Shown here one piece after another: positions 4,936-16,770 of a stretch of 64,000 nt of DNA (positions are counted from its first letter, which is position 1; every line of letters begins with the position of its first letter). Position numbers and translations under genes: made by a program. A model generated the notes under the pieces. That model saw only the letters and a program-made list of their open reading frames with translations. It made no database searches and had not been told where the DNA came from. Origin of the DNA: Vicinamibacterales bacterium (lineage in GTDB: Bacteria > Acidobacteriota > Vicinamibacteria > Vicinamibacterales > CAVVIG01); assembly GCA_035652075.1 (NCBI GenBank), contig DASREL010000107.1, forward strand, positions 12,385-76,384, written 5' to 3'.

Positions 4936-5587
4936 GTGAACCTTTTGAACCTCTTGAACCTCTTGAACCCCTTGAACCTGTATCGCTCGCCTGCGCCGGC
5001 ATGAACCGCCGCACGGCACCGCCGACGGTCTGGCCGACGAGCTGTGCGCCGCGCTGCAGCACGTCCATCGTCTTCAGCGTCTGGTCGTGCCATTCTTTCG
5101 ACGCCGCACGGTTGACGCCGCCCTCGGCGATCGCGGTCAATTTCTTGTCGGCGTTCTTCTCGTCCTTCAGGTTTTGTTCGAGCAGCTTCGCGACCTGTTT
5201 CTCGCCAAGGACGCTGGCGTACGTGCGGACGGTGCCGTAGGTGGCGATCTCGTAGTGCTCGACCTTTTGCGCGGCGGTGATCAGCATCGCATCGAGAAGC
5301 GCGCCAGGCTCGCCGCTTTCCATCAGCTCCTGGCCTTCTTCGAGCAGTCCTTCCATCGCCTCGCACGTCTTGCCCGATGCATCCTCTTTGAGCGCCTTCA
5401 GCGCCTGGCTGACGCGGCGTTCGTGCGTCTTGGTCTCCGCGAGATGTTTGCGAAACGCCGACTGCAGCTCCTTGCGCGAGGCCTTCTCGGCCATCATCGG
5501 CAACGCTTCGATGAGCTGCTGTTCAGCGTTCAATAAATCGTTCAGTTCCTCGACAAGATGTTCACGGAGTGACGCGACTGATGCCAT
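4901..5587 (-). CDS. DUF892 / YciE-YciF ferritin-like stress protein with a Gly-Ser-Arg repeat tail
   Basis: MASVASLREHLVEELNDLLNAEQQLIEALPMMAEKA and KVEHYEIATYGT motifs. GGAGG lies 7 nt upstream of ATG 5587. The tail GSRGSRGSRGSKGSRGSK is encoded by the 9-nt array. Confidence 0.8.
   Translation of the reverse strand: MASVASLREHLVEELNDLLNAEQQLIEALPMMAEKASRKELQSAFRKHLAETKTHERRVSQALKALKEDASGKTCEAMEGLLEEGQELMESGEPGALLDAMLITAAQKVEHYEIATYGTVRTYASVLGEKQVAKLLEQNLKDEKNADKKLTAIAEGGVNRAASKEWHDQTLKTMDVLQRGAQLVGQTVGGAVRRFMPAQASDTGSRGSRGSRGSKGSRGSKRSGSRSR
4926..4979. repeat. 9-nt tandem array (TTGAACCYN x6)
   Basis: tttgaacca cgtgaacct tttgaacct cttgaacct cttgaaccc cttgaacct. Direct repeats only. Confidence 0.9.
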
Positions 5588-5620: not shown

Positions 5621-6094
5621 ATGCCACACAAGAGATGGTGCGTGGTGCGTAGTGCGGTGTGCGTGATGGCATTGTGCGCGGTTGCGTGTGGTGGGCCCGA
5701 CCGCGCGATTGGGGCGCGGCTCGCCTCGCCGGCGAAATTGACGTCAGAAGAAATTGCGCAGACGCTGCAGGCCGTGGGGCGCGCGATGCGCGGACGTCAG
5801 CCGCGGGTGAAGCAGGGCGCGGTTACGCGTCCGCTCGACGAGCGTGAACGCGCGCAGGTGTTCGACGTCCTGGCCGATGCGCGCGGACTCGAAGACGTCG
5901 GCATCAAGCAGAACGACGGCGTCACTGCGCGCGGACTCCGCGTGCCCGCCACGTCACCGCAATCGGAGATCGAAGCCACCGGCACCCTGTGGATTGACGT
6001 CAACACGCTACTCCCGCGCCGATACGACTTCGCGTACGCGATGCCGGGTTTCGGCGATTACACGCTGGACCTCACTTTCGAAAACACACCATGA
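5621..6094 (+). CDS. Hypothetical lipoprotein/secreted protein
   Basis: Hydrophobic N-terminus with a lipobox-like LCAVAC. GC3-rich frame. ATGA coupling to the next gene. No family recognised. Confidence 0.5.
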   Translation: MPHKRWCVVRSAVCVMALCAVACGGPDRAIGARLASPAKLTSEEIAQTLQAVGRAMRGRQPRVKQGAVTRPLDERERAQVFDVLADARGLEDVGIKQNDGVTARGLRVPATSPQSEIEATGTLWIDVNTLLPRRYDFAYAMPGFGDYTLDLTFENTP

Positions 6095-7041
6095 CAACAC
6101 GCTGGATTCCGCTCGCCGCTGTGGCCGTTGCCGTTTCCGTCTCAGTTGCAGTTGGCAGGGGTCAATCGCAACCGACGTCCTCTCACACGTTCAAAGAGAT
6201 CGCGCCTGGTGTGTACAGCGCCATCGGCAGCAGCACGTCGAACGCCGGATCGAATTCGGCGGTGATCGTCAATCAAGACGACGTGGTGATCGTCGATTCG
6301 CATATGACGCCCGACGCCGGACGCGCGTTGCTGCAGGACATCAAGACGATCACGAACAAGCCGGTGCGGTTCTTGATCAACACACATTTCCACTACGACC
6401 ACACCGACGGCAACCAGGCGTTTCCCAAGCCGATCGACATCATCGGCACCGAGTACACGCGCGCGCGGCTGAGCGCGCCGGACTACATGAAGAAGGGGAT
6501 GCTCGGGAATCTGTTGGCCGGCCAGAACACGTTGGCGCCGCAGTTGAAAGACCTGACGCCGATCGCGCCCAACGTCACGCTCGACGAGCGCATGACGCTG
6601 TGGCGCGGCGATCGCGAGATCCGGTTGCTGTATCTCGGTCGCGGCCACACCGGCGGCGACGTGGTCGTCTATTTGCCGAAAGAGAAAGTGCTGTGCACCG
6701 GAGATCTGCTCGTCAACCAAATCGCCAACTTGATCGACGGGTTCGTCGACGTCTGGCCGGACACACTCGAGAAGTTGAAACCCGTCGACTTCACCGACGT
6801 GATCCCAGGCCACGGCGAACCCTTCAAAGGCAAAGAGCGGATCGACTGGTTCCAGGCGTACCTGCGCGATCTCTGGAAGCAGGCCACGGCGCTGCACGAT
6901 AAGAAGGTTCCAGCCGCCGACGCGGCGAAGCAAATCGACATGTCCGCGCACAAAGCGCAGTACGCGAGCATCAACGGTCCAGGCGTCAACCCGGCCTACG
7001 TGTCACGTATGTATGAGGTGATGGAAAAGCGCGCGGAATAG
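6091..7041 (+). CDS. MBL-fold metallo-hydrolase, secreted
   Basis: Signal-like N-terminus. HFHYDHTDGN (HxHxDH) and GHG/HGEP metal ligands. Confidence 0.85.
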   Translation: MTTRWIPLAAVAVAVSVSVAVGRGQSQPTSSHTFKEIAPGVYSAIGSSTSNAGSNSAVIVNQDDVVIVDSHMTPDAGRALLQDIKTITNKPVRFLINTHFHYDHTDGNQAFPKPIDIIGTEYTRARLSAPDYMKKGMLGNLLAGQNTLAPQLKDLTPIAPNVTLDERMTLWRGDREIRLLYLGRGHTGGDVVVYLPKEKVLCTGDLLVNQIANLIDGFVDVWPDTLEKLKPVDFTDVIPGHGEPFKGKERIDWFQAYLRDLWKQATALHDKKVPAADAAKQIDMSAHKAQYASINGPGVNPAYVSRMYEVMEKRAE

Positions 7042-11822: not shown

Positions 11823-12665
11823 CTCCGCACGTACGCGTCTTTCGTCCGCATCAGCCACTCCGTCTTCGCGCTGCCGTTTGCGCTGGCCGGCGCGCTGCTC
11901 GCGGCCCAGCAATCGCCGTTGACGCTGCGCACGGTGATCTGGATTCTGGTCGCAATGGTTGGCGCGCGCAGTGCCGCGATGGGGTTCAACCGCCTCGTCG
12001 ACGCGCGCATCGACGCGTTGAACCCGCGGACCGCGAATCGCGAGCTGCCGCGCGGCGCGATGACCGCGCGCGAGGCGACCGCGTTCGTCACGATTGCATC
12101 CGCGGTGTTCGTCGTCGCGGCGTGGCAACTCAATCCGATCTGTTTCGCGCTGTCGCCGGTGGCGCTCGCGATCGTGTTCTGGTATTCGCTCGCGAAGCGC
12201 TACACGACATGGACGCAGCTGTTTCTCGGCCTCGCGATGGCGGTCGCGCCGGTTGGCGGATGGCTCGCGGTCGGCGGTCGCGGCGGCTGGCAGCCGTGGC
12301 TGCTCGCGCTCGCGATCGGCACGTGGGTCGGCGGGTTCGACGTTCTCTACGCCTGCCAGGATCTCGATTTCGATCGCGCGCACGGATTGCGATCCATTCC
12401 CGTCCGCTTCGGCGTGCGGCAGTCACTCGCGATTTCGCGATGCATGCACGTCGTCGCCGTCCTGTGTCTCGCAGCGCTGGGTGTCGTGACGACGCTCGGT
12501 CCGATCTACTTCGGCGGCGTCGCGATCGTCGCCGCGCTGCTGGTGTACGAGCAGTCGCTCGTCAGCGCCGAGGATCTCTCGCAGGTCAAACGGGCGTTCG
12601 ATCTGAACGGCTACGTCGGCATCCTCTACTTGCTCGTCCTCGTCGTCGCGTTATATGCACGATGA
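11751..12665 (+). CDS. UbiA-family prenyltransferase (MqnP-type)
   Basis: LRTYASFVRISHSVFALPFALAGALL and GFNRLVDARIDALNPRTANRELP (NxxxDxxxD-type motif), followed by multiple TM helices. The start is ambiguous. All in-frame ATG/GTG candidates (11655 to 11751) lie in or before the repeat. Confidence 0.8.
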   Translation: MHAARSTLHPARSTLHPARGTLHHLRTYASFVRISHSVFALPFALAGALLAAQQSPLTLRTVIWILVAMVGARSAAMGFNRLVDARIDALNPRTANRELPRGAMTAREATAFVTIASAVFVVAAWQLNPICFALSPVALAIVFWYSLAKRYTTWTQLFLGLAMAVAPVGGWLAVGGRGGWQPWLLALAIGTWVGGFDVLYACQDLDFDRAHGLRSIPVRFGVRQSLAISRCMHVVAVLCLAALGVVTTLGPIYFGGVAIVAALLVYEQSLVSAEDLSQVKRAFDLNGYVGILYLLVLVVALYAR

Positions 12666-13377
12666 CGGCACCGACGTCTCGAAGACGCCGGCGCGCATCG
12701 CGGGGATGTTCGATGCGATCGCCGGCCGCTACGACTTCCTCAATCATTTTCTGAGCGGAGGGATCGATCGCCGCTGGCGCGCCCGCGCGATCCGGTCGCT
12801 CGCGTTGACCGGGCGCGAAACGGTTCTCGACGTCTGCACCGGCACTGGCGACCTGGCGATCGAGGCGATGCAGGCGGCGCCGTCGGCCGCCCGGGTCGTC
12901 GGCGTCGATTTCGCCGGCGCCATGCTCGCGATTGGTCACGACAAATTGCGGCGTGCTGGCGCCGTGGAGCGCATCACGTTACTGCGCGGCGATGCGATGC
13001 GCATCCCGTTGGCCGATCGATCGGTCGACGGCGTCACCGTCGGTTTTGGCATTCGCAACGTGGCCGATGTGCCGGCGGCGTGCCGCGAGATGTTGCGCGT
13101 GTTGAAACCGGGTGGACGGATCGCGATTCTCGAATTTGCCGTGCCGACGACGCCGGTGTTCCGCGACGTGTTCGGGTGGTACATGCATACCGTGTTGCCA
13201 CGACTCGGACGTGCGATTTCGCGACACCAGGGCGCATACAAATACTTGCAAGCGTCGATCGACGCGTGGCTCACTCCTGCTGAGTTCGTGACAATTCTTC
13301 GACAATCTGGATTTGTCGAGATTCATGCAGTCCCACTGACCCTTGGCGCCGTCTTTCTTTATGAGGCTCGACGGTAA
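12655..13377 (+). CDS. ubiE: Demethylmenaquinone/ubiquinone C-methyltransferase UbiE/MenG
   Basis: MFDAIAGRYDFLNHFLSGGIDRRWR and VLDVCTGTGDLA SAM-binding motif. Confidence 0.9.
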   Translation: MHDDGTDVSKTPARIAGMFDAIAGRYDFLNHFLSGGIDRRWRARAIRSLALTGRETVLDVCTGTGDLAIEAMQAAPSAARVVGVDFAGAMLAIGHDKLRRAGAVERITLLRGDAMRIPLADRSVDGVTVGFGIRNVADVPAACREMLRVLKPGGRIAILEFAVPTTPVFRDVFGWYMHTVLPRLGRAISRHQGAYKYLQASIDAWLTPAEFVTILRQSGFVEIHAVPLTLGAVFLYEARR

Positions 13378-14456: not shown

Positions 14457-15378
14457 GCGGCTGGTCGCCGTCCTCGGTCCGACGGCGACGGGGAAGAGCG
14501 CGCTGGGCATCGCGCTCGCGCAGAAGTACGACGGCGAGATCATCAACTGCGATTCGACGGCCGTGTATCGCGGGTTCGATATCGGCACCGACAAGGTCCT
14601 GCCGCAGGATCGCCACGGCATTCCGCATCACCTGATCGACATCGTCGATCCGACCGAGGACTACACCGCGGCGCAGTTTGCGCGCGACGCGGCGGCGGTG
14701 ATTCGCGAACTGCACGCGCGTGGCACGCTGCCGATCCTCGTTGGCGGCACCGGGTTCTATTTTCGTGCGCTGACGCGCGGGCTGTTTCCCGGTCCCGGCC
14801 GCAACGCCGAACTGCGCGAGCGCCTCGAAGGGATTGCGGCGCGGCGCGGCGTCGAGTTTCTGCATCGCATGCTCGCGCGCGTCGATCGCGAGTCCGCGGT
14901 CCGCATCCAGTCGCGCGATCTGAAGCGCATCGTTCGCGCGCTCGAAGTGTTCTTCCTCACCGGCGCGCCGCTGACCTCGCACTTCGCACTGACCGCGTCA
15001 CCGATTCCGGATGTCGATGTGATCGCGATCGGCCTGACGATGCCGGCGGCCGTCATTTCCGAGCGGGTGACGCGTCGCGTCGACGTGCAGTTCGAGCGCG
15101 GGTTGCTCGACGAGATACGGACACTGCTCGCGCGTGGGATTCCGGAGAGCGCACGTCCGTTTGGTGGCCTGGTGTATCGGCAGGCGCTCGAGCACCTGCA
15201 CGGTGTGCGGGACGCTGCGGCCACGCGCGCGCTCATCGCGCAGGAGAACCGCCGGTATGCTCGGCGGCAGTTGATCTGGTTTCGCAAAGAGCCTAACCTA
15301 ACGTGGTTCGACGGTCCCGGCGATTCGCCGTCCACCATCGCGGCCGTCACGCGCTTCATCGATGAACGCACAAGCTAA
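14446..15378 (+). CDS. miaA: tRNA dimethylallyltransferase MiaA
   Basis: GPTATGKS P-loop, IINCDSTAVYRGFDIGTDK, and HHLID. Confidence 0.9.
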   Translation: MSTKRLVAVLGPTATGKSALGIALAQKYDGEIINCDSTAVYRGFDIGTDKVLPQDRHGIPHHLIDIVDPTEDYTAAQFARDAAAVIRELHARGTLPILVGGTGFYFRALTRGLFPGPGRNAELRERLEGIAARRGVEFLHRMLARVDRESAVRIQSRDLKRIVRALEVFFLTGAPLTSHFALTASPIPDVDVIAIGLTMPAAVISERVTRRVDVQFERGLLDEIRTLLARGIPESARPFGGLVYRQALEHLHGVRDAAATRALIAQENRRYARRQLIWFRKEPNLTWFDGPGDSPSTIAAVTRFIDERTS

Positions 15379-15592
15379 CATCCAGGACGTTTTCCTCAAC
15401 TACGTGCGGCGCGAGAAGCTGACCGTCACCGTCCGGATGATGGACGGTCACGAGCTCGAGGGGCGCATCAAGAACTTCGATCGCTTCGCGGTCGTGCTCG
15501 AAACGCAGGGCACCGATCAGATGATCTTCAAGCACGCCATCGCCGGCATCAAAACACCGAAGCCGGTCGCCAACTACTTTTCCCACTCCTAG
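15362..15592 (+). CDS. hfq: RNA chaperone Hfq
   Basis: IQDVFLNYVRREKLTVTVRMMDGHELEGRIKNFDRFAVVLE...IFKHAI carries the Sm1/Sm2 motifs. Conserved miaA-hfq order. Confidence 0.95.
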   Translation: MNAQANIQDVFLNYVRREKLTVTVRMMDGHELEGRIKNFDRFAVVLETQGTDQMIFKHAIAGIKTPKPVANYFSHS

Positions 15593-16770
15593 TGTTCACG
15601 CGCGCCATCGTCATCGTCATGGACAGCGTCGGCATCGGCGAGTTGCCGGATGCGGCGGACTACGGAGATCAGGGCAGCAACACGGTCGCCAACATCGACC
15701 GTCGCGTCCCGCTGAGGGTCCCAACCCTCCGCGCGCTGGGGTTAGACCAAATCGTCAGACTGAACAGTCTGACTAAGAAGTCTGACCAAATAGTCAGACT
15801 TCCCGCGTTCGGGAAGATGGCGGAGGCGTCGGCAGGGAAAGATTCGGTCACTGGACATTGGGAGATGATGGGAATTGTCCTGGACAAGGCATTTCCGACA
15901 TTCCCTGACGGGTTTTCGAACGACGTGTTGGAAGAATTTGCCCGCCAGACGGGACGCGGTGTCCTCGGCAACAAGGCCGCTTCGGGGACCGCAATCATCG
16001 ACGAGCTCGGTCCCGAGCACATGCGGACCGGCAAGCTGATTGTCTACACGTCGGCCGACAGCGTCTTCCAAATCGCCGCGCACGAGGACATCGTGCCCGT
16101 CCCCGAGCTGTATCGCGCCTGCGAAGTCGCCTACCGCATCGTCGGCGAAGGCCTCGGGGTGGGCCGCGTCATCGCGCGACCCTTCGTCGGCGCGCCGGGC
16201 AGCTTCAAGCGGACCGCGAATCGTCACGATTACGCGCTGCCGCCGTCGGGCGAAACGTTTCTGGACCGCGCGAAGGCCGCCGGCATCCCGGTCGTCGCGA
16301 TCGGCAAGATCGAGGATCTCTTCGCGGGACGCGGGATCACGAAGGCGATCCACACGAAGAGCGACGATGACGGGATGGACAACGTCGAGCGCCAGATGGC
16401 GGAGCTGGACCGCGGGTTCATCTTCACGAACCTGGTCGACTTCGACACGCAGTACGGCCACCGCAACGACACCGAAGGCTACGCGCGCAACCTCGAACGC
16501 TTCGACGCGCGGCTCGCCGCGATCCTGCCGCGCCTGCGCCAGGACGATCTCCTCATCGTGACCGCGGACCACGGGAACGATCCGACGACGCCGAGCACCG
16601 ATCACGCGCGCGAGTATGTGCCGCTGCTCGTCACCGGCACGCGCGTGCGCGAGAATGTCGACCTCGGTATTCGCCGCACCTTCGCCGACGTCGCGCAGAC
16701 GCTGGCCGAGAACTTCGGCGTCGGCCGTCTTGCGAACGGCACCAGCTTCCTCAGTACAATCAGCGCGTGA
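15592..16770 (+). CDS. deoB: Phosphopentomutase DeoB
   Basis: VIVMDSVGIGELPDA, GKDSVTGHWEMMG, TADHGNDPT. TAGTG overlap with hfq. Confidence 0.9.
   Translation: MFTRAIVIVMDSVGIGELPDAADYGDQGSNTVANIDRRVPLRVPTLRALGLDQIVRLNSLTKKSDQIVRLPAFGKMAEASAGKDSVTGHWEMMGIVLDKAFPTFPDGFSNDVLEEFARQTGRGVLGNKAASGTAIIDELGPEHMRTGKLIVYTSADSVFQIAAHEDIVPVPELYRACEVAYRIVGEGLGVGRVIARPFVGAPGSFKRTANRHDYALPPSGETFLDRAKAAGIPVVAIGKIEDLFAGRGITKAIHTKSDDDGMDNVERQMAELDRGFIFTNLVDFDTQYGHRNDTEGYARNLERFDARLAAILPRLRQDDLLIVTADHGNDPTTPSTDHAREYVPLLVTGTRVRENVDLGIRRTFADVAQTLAENFGVGRLANGTSFLSTISA
15741..15803. repeat. Intragenic 13-nt-period array of GTCWGAC heptamers inside deoB
   Basis: gttagac(15741) gtcagac(15754) gtctgac(15767) gtctgac(15780) gtcagac(15793). 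The array is locally AT-rich and in frame, and encodes DQIVRLNSLTKKSDQIVRL. Confidence 0.9.

Follow-up and report, generated by a model that had tools for sequence, protein, structure and literature searches.

The window analysed here, a 64,000-nt stretch of a Vicinamibacterales metagenome-assembled genome (MAG; GenBank assembly GCA_035652075.1, contig DASREL010000107.1, positions 12,385 to 76,384), contains an intact gene for phosphopentomutase, deoB, with an AT-rich, in-frame array of five GTCWGAC-type heptamers (Table 1). In agreement with a preliminary description of this DNA, the heptamers lie exactly 13 nt apart and 25 of the 60 nt from 15741 are G or C; the array as a whole has a G+C content of 42% compared with 66% in the remainder of the gene. 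The best solved relative of DeoB is the Bacillus cereus phosphopentomutase (PPM; PDB 3m8w; E = 3.7e-127, residues 2-390 aligned), the metal and phosphothreonine motifs are conserved, with GKDSVTGHWE present, and all 68 of the 68 columns that are invariant across 59 orthologues are retained. As described earlier, the array lies between the LGL and GKM...GKDSVTGHWE motifs, where it codes for L51-L70 (LDQIVRLNSLTKKSDQIVRL). The pattern GTCWGAC-N6-GTCWGAC, with at most one mismatch, has four matches in the window, all of them in this array, against 0.02 expected from shuffles. The one hairpin that had been claimed is present with an 8-bp stem and is followed by a second with a 10-bp stem; the fold z-score of the array is -5.2 as RNA and -5.7 as DNA, and 0 of 200 shuffles fold as well. 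An Rfam scan of 15400-16200 returned only a chance sub-threshold match to isrO (E = 0.49).

The segment substitutes for a variable loop without much lengthening the protein, as had been proposed: the distance from LGL to GKM is 25 residues, with a mode of 19-23 in 120 close homologues, and the loop is 3 residues longer than in B. cereus PPM and 4 longer than in an array-less orthologue from the same genus. Among 30 relatives, the loop mostly has the plain form LGLxRxxxxGG...GAxGRM. Structural modelling is consistent with the proposed loop, because the AlphaFold model of DeoB has a pLDDT (predicted local distance difference test) of 93.6 overall while residues 61-70, between a short helix at 51-54 (DSSP) and a strand at 72-76, are low-confidence coil with a mean of 55. 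As modelled, the array codes for a floppy surface loop and not for a new enzyme feature.

The deoB array is one copy of a family dispersed through the genome (G000; 5.64 Mb, 227 contigs, 64.7% G+C, 5.7% contamination). Among its 646 GTCWGAC heptamers, the distances from one to the next show sharp peaks at 11 nt (83 cases) and 13 nt (80 cases). Arrays of at least three units number 38 (235 heptamers in total), 19 of a 13-nt type and 19 of an 11-nt type; the two types occur in one organism, because contig C15 holds both. The unit consists of the near-palindromic heptamer and a spacer of either 4 nt (11-nt period; e.g., TGGG or TCGG) or 6 nt (13-nt period; AT-rich, most commonly TTCCAA). In GTCAGAC orientation, a typical array of the 13-nt type, the units of which read CCAAGTCAG, has the form GTCTGAC-(T/C)AAxxA-GTCAGAC-(TTCCAA-GTCAGAC)n-TTGTT(A/G)-GTCAGAC, i.e., a tandem core enclosed by inverted terminal modules, and array ends read A-GTCTGAC ... 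GTCAGAC-T, the palindrome thereby being a 9-mer. The four spacers of the deoB array all differ from one another, and its second part is found elsewhere with exact matches of at least 17 nt (C157:12107, C157:18617, C205:22279, and C122:10026). The first of these is the array just upstream of a tyrosine transposase gene, and modules of 21-24 nt, spacers included, are common verbatim to the deoB array and the arrays near that gene. In a search of 151 genomes of the order and seven chosen genomes, the triple unit of the 13-nt type was found only in G000, and even within the genus the GTCWGAC family is patchy, being absent from three genomes (G001-G003). Two arrays of the 11-nt type lie at contig ends (C80:1-46 and C218:18933-18984); arrays in such positions probably break short-read assembly, so that their true number would be under-counted.

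A Pfam search of the genome for Y1_Tnp domains identified four genes above the Pfam cut-off, on contigs C157, C147, C32, and C142 (Table 1). The C157 and C147 genes are bracketed by arrays of the 13-nt and 11-nt types, respectively, and their products contain the HUH motifs NHYH and THWH and the tyrosine motif LRYIEQNPV; HUH and Tyr of these proteins align with those of ISDra2 TnpA (2xm3). For all four proteins the best NCBIfam model is the repetitive extragenic palindromic (REP)-associated tyrosine transposase (RAYT), NF047646 (REP_Tyr_transpos), and the extension of about 80 aa at the RAYT C-terminus has no Pfam domain at E <= 0.1. Bracketing of a RAYT gene by GTCWGAC arrays is seen also in the carrier genomes G165, G052, and G134; around the C147, G052, and G134 genes the flanking arrays of the 11-nt type are inverted, with units that read GGGGTCAG. 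G001, a genome of the same genus, has a RAYT gene with GGGGACGGAGT units on its flanks; these units are dispersed (11 or more loci) in G001 only, and they also fill the DeoB loop of that species. Based on sequence comparison, the GTCWGAC arrays are likely the cognate repeat of RAYT-type HUH transposases, or of the related TIRYT type introduced below, of the same genome, which presumably move or maintain the units.

The other two Y1_Tnp genes have different flanks. The GAGGTGTCAGACACCTC-type hairpins around the C32 paralogue occur also as isolated doublets on C56, C128, and C202 and represent a third flavour on the GTCWGAC core. The C142 gene has classical GTAG-tagged REP hairpins on its flanks; hence, classical REPs and heptamer-core arrays coexist in one genome. 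Moreover, Tandem Repeats Finder (TRF) reports 1,652 tandem-repeat matches in the 5.64 Mb, with period peaks at 7 (271) and 9 (337), and dozens of other dispersed word families are present in G000 (e.g., AATCCGC with 82 arrays, AATCCCG, AAGATCACG, and AACCTCTTG), most of them without an identified enzyme, because only four Y1 transposase genes were found.

Table 1 Features of the deoB locus (window coordinates) and Y1_Tnp genes of the genome (contig coordinates).
Feature	Position	Strand	Description
deoB (phosphopentomutase)	15592..16770	+	392 aa, intact host gene, GTG start
Five GTCWGAC-type heptamers, 13-nt period	15741..15799	+	GTTAGAC caaatc GTCAGAC tgaaca GTCTGAC taagaa GTCTGAC caaata GTCAGAC; heptamers start at 15741, 15754, 15767, 15780, and 15793
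First module GTTAGAC CAAATC GTCAGAC	15741..15760	+	overlaps conserved L-D-x-x-V helix codons; 17/20 direct repeat of 15780-15799
Hairpin 1, GTCAGACTGAACAGTCTGAC	15754..15773	+	8-bp stem GTCAGACT/AGTCTGAC, 4-nt loop
Modules verbatim in other family copies, AGTCTGACTAAGAAGTCTGAC + GTCTGACCAAATAGTCAGACTTCC	15766..15803	+	exact matches of at least 17 nt
Hairpin 2	15777..15802	+	10-bp stem GAAGTCTGAC/GTCAGACTTC, 6-nt loop CAAATA
Y1_Tnp gene	C157:12338-12970		flanking 13-nt-type arrays 12108-12205 and 12965-13048, direct orientation
Y1_Tnp gene	C147:5283-5924		flanking 11-nt-type arrays 5038-5121 and 5996-6102, inverted orientation
Third RAYT paralogue	C32:1600-2400		flanked by GAGGTGTCAGACACCTC-type hairpins
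Fourth RAYT gene	C142:15550-16200		162 aa, above NCBIfam cut-off; GTAG-tagged REP hairpins (GTAGCGCAGCCCTTTAGGGCTGC) on flanks

The history of the deoB copy can be read from a sister species, whose array came to light only through a protein search. The closest other DeoB (P0002, 84% amino acid identity) is encoded on an independent JGI metagenome contig (locus L127), and its loop reads GTTAGAC cgcttg GTCAGAC ttccga GTCAGAC ctcgga GTCAGAC tcccgt GTCAGAC, i.e., five units in the same phase as in the deoB array. This orthologous, in-phase array implies that the deoB array predates the split of the two species. While the two genes are 82% identical at the nucleotide level, the heptamers are identical at 33 of 35 positions and the spacers at only 6 of 24 (Fisher p = 2.9e-8), a contrast that points to maintenance of the heptamers at the DNA level. 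The spacers in our genome are those seen near the C157 RAYT, and they would have turned over by templated conversion. The first spacer of the sister consists of native R-L codons (GTTAGAC CGCTTG GTCAGAC, coding for L-D-R-L-V) while in our genome it is CAAATC (Q-I), matching the family module, and array-less relatives have CTCGACCGxCTCGTC at the site of the first module. Thus, the array seems to have extended upstream into the L-D-x-x-V helix, which is conserved, and to have brought only conservative substitutions there (R-L to Q-I). We note that the gene order of the sister locus, hfq-deoB-HD dGTPase-yceD-rpmF-plsX, agrees with that of the window for hfq, deoB, and the downstream HD-type open reading frame (ORF), the extent over which the two were compared, and that the TAG stop of the hfq-like ORF (window 15360-15594) overlaps the deoB GTG start (TAGTG).

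Residence in frame is not peculiar to deoB. Fourteen of the 38 arrays (37%) lie in frame inside genes verified by Pfam or PDB matches, so that the family is not mainly extragenic in the way that REPs are. These genes code for DeoB, PriA, an AddB-like PD-(D/E)XK protein, AccC, LpxB, a thiamine pyrophosphate (TPP) enzyme, two FAD oxidoreductases, SpoIID, a HEAT-cyclophilin protein, an aldehyde dehydrogenase, an ABC ATPase, an L,D-transpeptidase, and a PD40-amidohydrolase protein, and most of the arrays are in linkers or loops or, where Pfam domains mark out the host protein, between these domains or in its tails. The GTCAGAC strand is stop-free in all three frames, coding for VRLPSQTSKSDFQ in the 13-nt type and VRLGSDWGQTG in the 11-nt type, while the T-centred strand, GTCTGAC, contains TGA in one phase, codon phase 0. 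In deoB, codon phase 0 is occupied by A-centred units only (15754 and 15793), while the two units with a T centre fall in phases 1 and 2. The preliminary description had noted the alternating orientation of the units, and both unit centres are indeed present; the meaning it had missed is that the pattern follows from the reading frame, because a T-centred unit in phase 0 would give an in-frame TGA. An internal inversion of the array, with the two T-centred units as a flipped 45-nt segment, was considered as well.

Compared with arrays elsewhere, intragenic arrays are shorter (median 5 versus 7 units, p = 0.02), and identical adjacent unit pairs are rarer in them (1 of 42 versus 35 of 106, p = 2.8e-5), which fits selection against frame-shifting slippage in genes and recent amplification of units outside them. 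A contingency locus, i.e., a phase-variable simple sequence repeat, was rejected on the basis that the deoB spacers all differ, that only the one intragenic pair is identical, and that the sister has the same number of units. Not every site is as obviously tolerant as the DeoB loop. In the ABC-transporter ATPase, the array (C71:13028-13073) codes for residues 28-42 directly before the Walker A region, and it seems to replace part of the N-terminal β-sheet and not a loop. In the TPP-dependent enzyme (C82:9388-9446), the array-coded FRSDLEVRLTG resembles FRQRLEAMLRG, the native sequence in the same-genus orthologue L112 (G002), which at the same site has a palindromic insert of its own (GAGATCGCAGA...TCTGCGATCTC). 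At the site of the LpxB array, another genome of the genus has a longer, GC-rich stretch.

The DeoB loop itself is a recurrent host of repeats in the order, with each species carrying its own. GTCWGAC arrays of the 11-nt type occupy the loop in L026/G165, and the P0009 and P0013 groups, judged from loop peptides only, are placed with them; the G001 word is present in the loop of P0012 and P0066, and other repeats are present in L022 and G002. In two relatives, the unit in the DeoB loop is the unit that flanks the RAYT gene of that species. The same loop carries a 25-30-residue insert (…EETAENA…SA.SAVSS…) in a further group of Vicinamibacterales DeoB proteins (L025, L027, P0048, P0057, P0070, P0071, and P0080); this insert is coded by a long imperfect palindrome unrelated to GTCWGAC.

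Family membership, RAYT linkage, in-frame residence, sister orthology, the divergence of spacers beside conserved heptamers, and the low confidence of the model in the loop together support a reading whereby the deoB array is probably a long-resident in-frame copy of a REP-like dispersed family that is cognate to RAYT/TIRYT transposases of the same genome. In this model, the copy would have entered the variable surface loop of DeoB before the split from the nearest sequenced sister, and three factors may have allowed it to survive: units on the GTCAGAC strand are stop-free in three frames, with T-centred units tolerated only outside codon phase 0; the net change in length preserved the reading frame; and a disordered loop would accept almost any sequence. 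Afterwards, DNA-level processes would have kept or re-homogenized the heptamers, with the spacers giving way to those current in the family of the genome. For DeoB, the array would be a neutral passenger that supplies a lineage-specific loop. The preliminary description was right that the array is real, in frame, and in a variable loop; it had missed the dispersed, transposase-linked family to which the array belongs, its age, and its orthologue in the sister.

Several observations weigh against this reading. Target-site duplications were not seen at array borders, and a clean empty site, sought in the deoB, lpxB, and TPP-enzyme orthologues, was not found, so that no insertion junction could be defined. 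In these three genes the arrays replace variable sequence, with a net gain of +12 to +18 nt in deoB and lpxB, and because native loop sequence is replaced and not simply added to, the integration step was not reconstructed. Three of the four RAYT-like proteins score just under the NCBIfam curated cut-off (76.2, 59.6, and 44.5 versus 80 bits), and the arrays flanking the C157 gene are in direct, not inverted, orientation. The units lack a GTAG or CGTC tag and are not palindromes of 20-40 nt, and hairpins form only between inverted neighbouring units, which departs from the definition of a REP unit. With about 1,650 TRF matches in the genome, some array near any given gene is common; for this reason, our argument rests on the identity of the word at both flanks in five genomes. 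Finally, it is conceivable that the heptamers are conserved because of selection on the residues that they encode (VRL, S-T, and SD).

Going beyond the REP-like origin of the array, we tentatively speculate that the RAYT/TIRYT enzymes of Vicinamibacterales act on single 11-nt or 13-nt units instead of on complete REP hairpins, adding, removing, and re-templating them, such that all arrays of a genome, intragenic ones too, are continuously homogenized to the current recognition word of the enzyme. If so, about one-third of the copies would persist in reading frames because the word is stop-free on one strand. Such unit-level homogenization would be a steady generator of lineage-specific protein loops and would account for the presence of a different RAYT-matched word in the DeoB loop of each species.

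Among the alternatives, the one that survives best, although we consider it unlikely, is that the host selects the arrays as protein-binding sites, e.g., helically phased ones, to which a nucleoid protein, a regulator, or a domesticated RAYT with a cellular role would bind, in which case the deoB copy would be a by-product or a functional site and not selfish DNA. The 11-nt period is near one helical turn, a dimeric protein would be well matched to a palindromic heptamer, conservation across species extends to the heptamers and not to the spacers, and RAYTs are usually single-copy and regarded as domesticated. However, the 13-nt type is not helically phased, 37% of the copies are within the coding sequence of unrelated housekeeping genes, and the family is patchy even within the genus; moreover, the word varies between species while the RAYT linkage persists. 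A much less probable origin is local, through duplication or slippage of a chance GAC-N6-GTC seed in deoB that had no relation to other arrays or to a transposase. In its favour, native codons for L-D-R-L-V (GAC CGx CTC GTC) are similar to a unit junction from the outset, and the array contains a direct repeat of 17/20 (Table 1). Nevertheless, the unit recurs at 38 loci and flanks RAYT genes on both sides, its spread from locus to locus cannot come from slippage alone, and the 21-24-nt modules with identical spacers on other contigs contradict this origin, which we reject for that reason.

It is harder still to credit that DQIVRLNSLTKKSDQIVRL was selected as a functional peptide in the loop of DeoB, with the periodicity of the DNA being secondary. 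The VRL, S-T, and SD residues are conserved between the two sister species, but they are exactly those coded by heptamers, and relatives carry wholly different or plain loops at a site of low model confidence. Occurrence of the peptide in unrelated phyla had been named as the observation that would indicate a conserved functional loop, and no such phylum was found among protein records; the same peptides do occur in at least 13 unrelated proteins, and we reject the functional reading for this reason. An assembly or binning artefact is next to inconceivable: the genome is a fragmented MAG with the contamination given above and with some arrays at contig ends (C80 and C218), but the ORF is unbroken, the same 392-aa protein, with an identical loop, is present both in a JGI/IMG record, where its contig is a different one of 10,196 nt, and in a third source, which also answers the concern about assembly error in the preliminary description, and the orthologous array of the sister comes from an independent metagenome.

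Support for a REP-like origin of the array also comes from comparison with known systems. REPtrons combine REPs or bacterial interspersed mosaic elements (BIMEs) with RAYT (TnpA-REP) genes (Nunvar 2010, PMC2817692; Bertels & Rainey 2011, PMC3116915; Di Nocera 2013, PMC3733652). Similarly to REPtrons, the system described here has a single-copy Y1 HUH transposase gene bracketed by a repeat that is dispersed through the genome, with clustered, hairpin-capable units often in alternating orientation, without target-site duplications, and with families that are lineage-specific and long-lived. Unlike in REPtrons, the unit is an 11-nt or 13-nt tandem module around a 7-nt near-palindrome instead of a stem-loop of 20-40 nt with a GTAG/CGTC tag, and about one-third of the arrays are intragenic while REPs are mostly extragenic. 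TIRYT genes of TIRtrons are RAYT-like genes flanked by inverted repeats (terminal inverted repeats, TIRs) other than GTAG REPs; they include an acidobacterial group with the TIR motif GGGGWSAS, and some TIRs form moderately abundant dispersed families, as dimers or clusters (PMC3733652). TIRYTs have been equated with TnpA-Y1 subclass 2.1, in which a C-terminal helix-turn-helix (HTH)-type domain is found (Quentin et al. 2018, PMC6006769). The 11-nt unit GGGGTCAG(AC) fits GGGGWSAS; in contrast to TIRtrons, up to 14 units in tandem make up the GTCWGAC "TIR", GGGG is missing from the 13-nt type, Pfam detected no C-terminal HTH on the transposases, and the arrays flanking the C157 gene are direct.

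For the arrays inside genes, the Rickettsia palindromic elements (RPE), which are reportedly in-frame repeats in housekeeping genes, offer one parallel. Another is provided by intragenic REPs, which code for 20-30 residues, many of them in replication and repair genes, with different REPs at one recB site in two Xanthomonas species (PMC3733652). Similarly to both, GTCWGAC arrays code in frame for about 20-30 residues in loops and linkers of housekeeping genes, with replication and repair hosts among them (PriA and the AddB-like nuclease), and, as at the Xanthomonas recB site, different repeats occupy one site of one gene in related species. They differ from both in having a sequence and an architecture of their own, with no relation to either, and a recognizable cognate transposase, and in that the array replaces a loop more than it adds to it. 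The deoB array nevertheless has what characterizes an intragenic REP or RPE, i.e., a dispersed repeat that is read through in frame in a loop of a conserved, intact gene. Finally, short-unit tandem arrays that are dispersed genome-wide and variable in unit number are known as the heptamer repeats of Xanthomonas (GGGAATC) and Nostoc (GGGGA(C/T)T) and the cyanobacterial short tandemly repeated repetitive sequences (STRR); the Xanthomonas and Nostoc heptamers are contiguous 7-mers, prone to form G-quadruplexes, under-represented in coding regions, and without a linked transposase (Rehm et al. 2015, PMC4692102). GTCWGAC arrays share with these repeats their dispersal and variable unit number, while their heptamers are spaced and RAYT-linked; the Xanthomonas and Nostoc repeats are nearer to the other 7-nt and 9-nt families of G000 than to GTCWGAC arrays.

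The deoB array is thus an unusual variant of known selfish DNA, an intragenic REP-like element, and the departures from known systems are the spaced-heptamer architecture without GTAG, the very high intragenic fraction, and pairs of word and enzyme that vary from one sister genome to another. The spread and persistence of REP-type repeats are still poorly understood, and the family described here offers as handles a compact word, GTCWGAC, matched pairs of transposase and word, and an orthologous intragenic copy with conserved heptamers and diverged spacers, making it a tractable system for the recognition and maintenance of such repeats. For annotation, AT-rich periodic stretches in GC-rich genes of Acidobacteriota should not be mistaken for frameshifts or assembly errors. 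For the organism, at least 14 housekeeping enzymes of a single genome have surface loops rewritten by selfish repeats.

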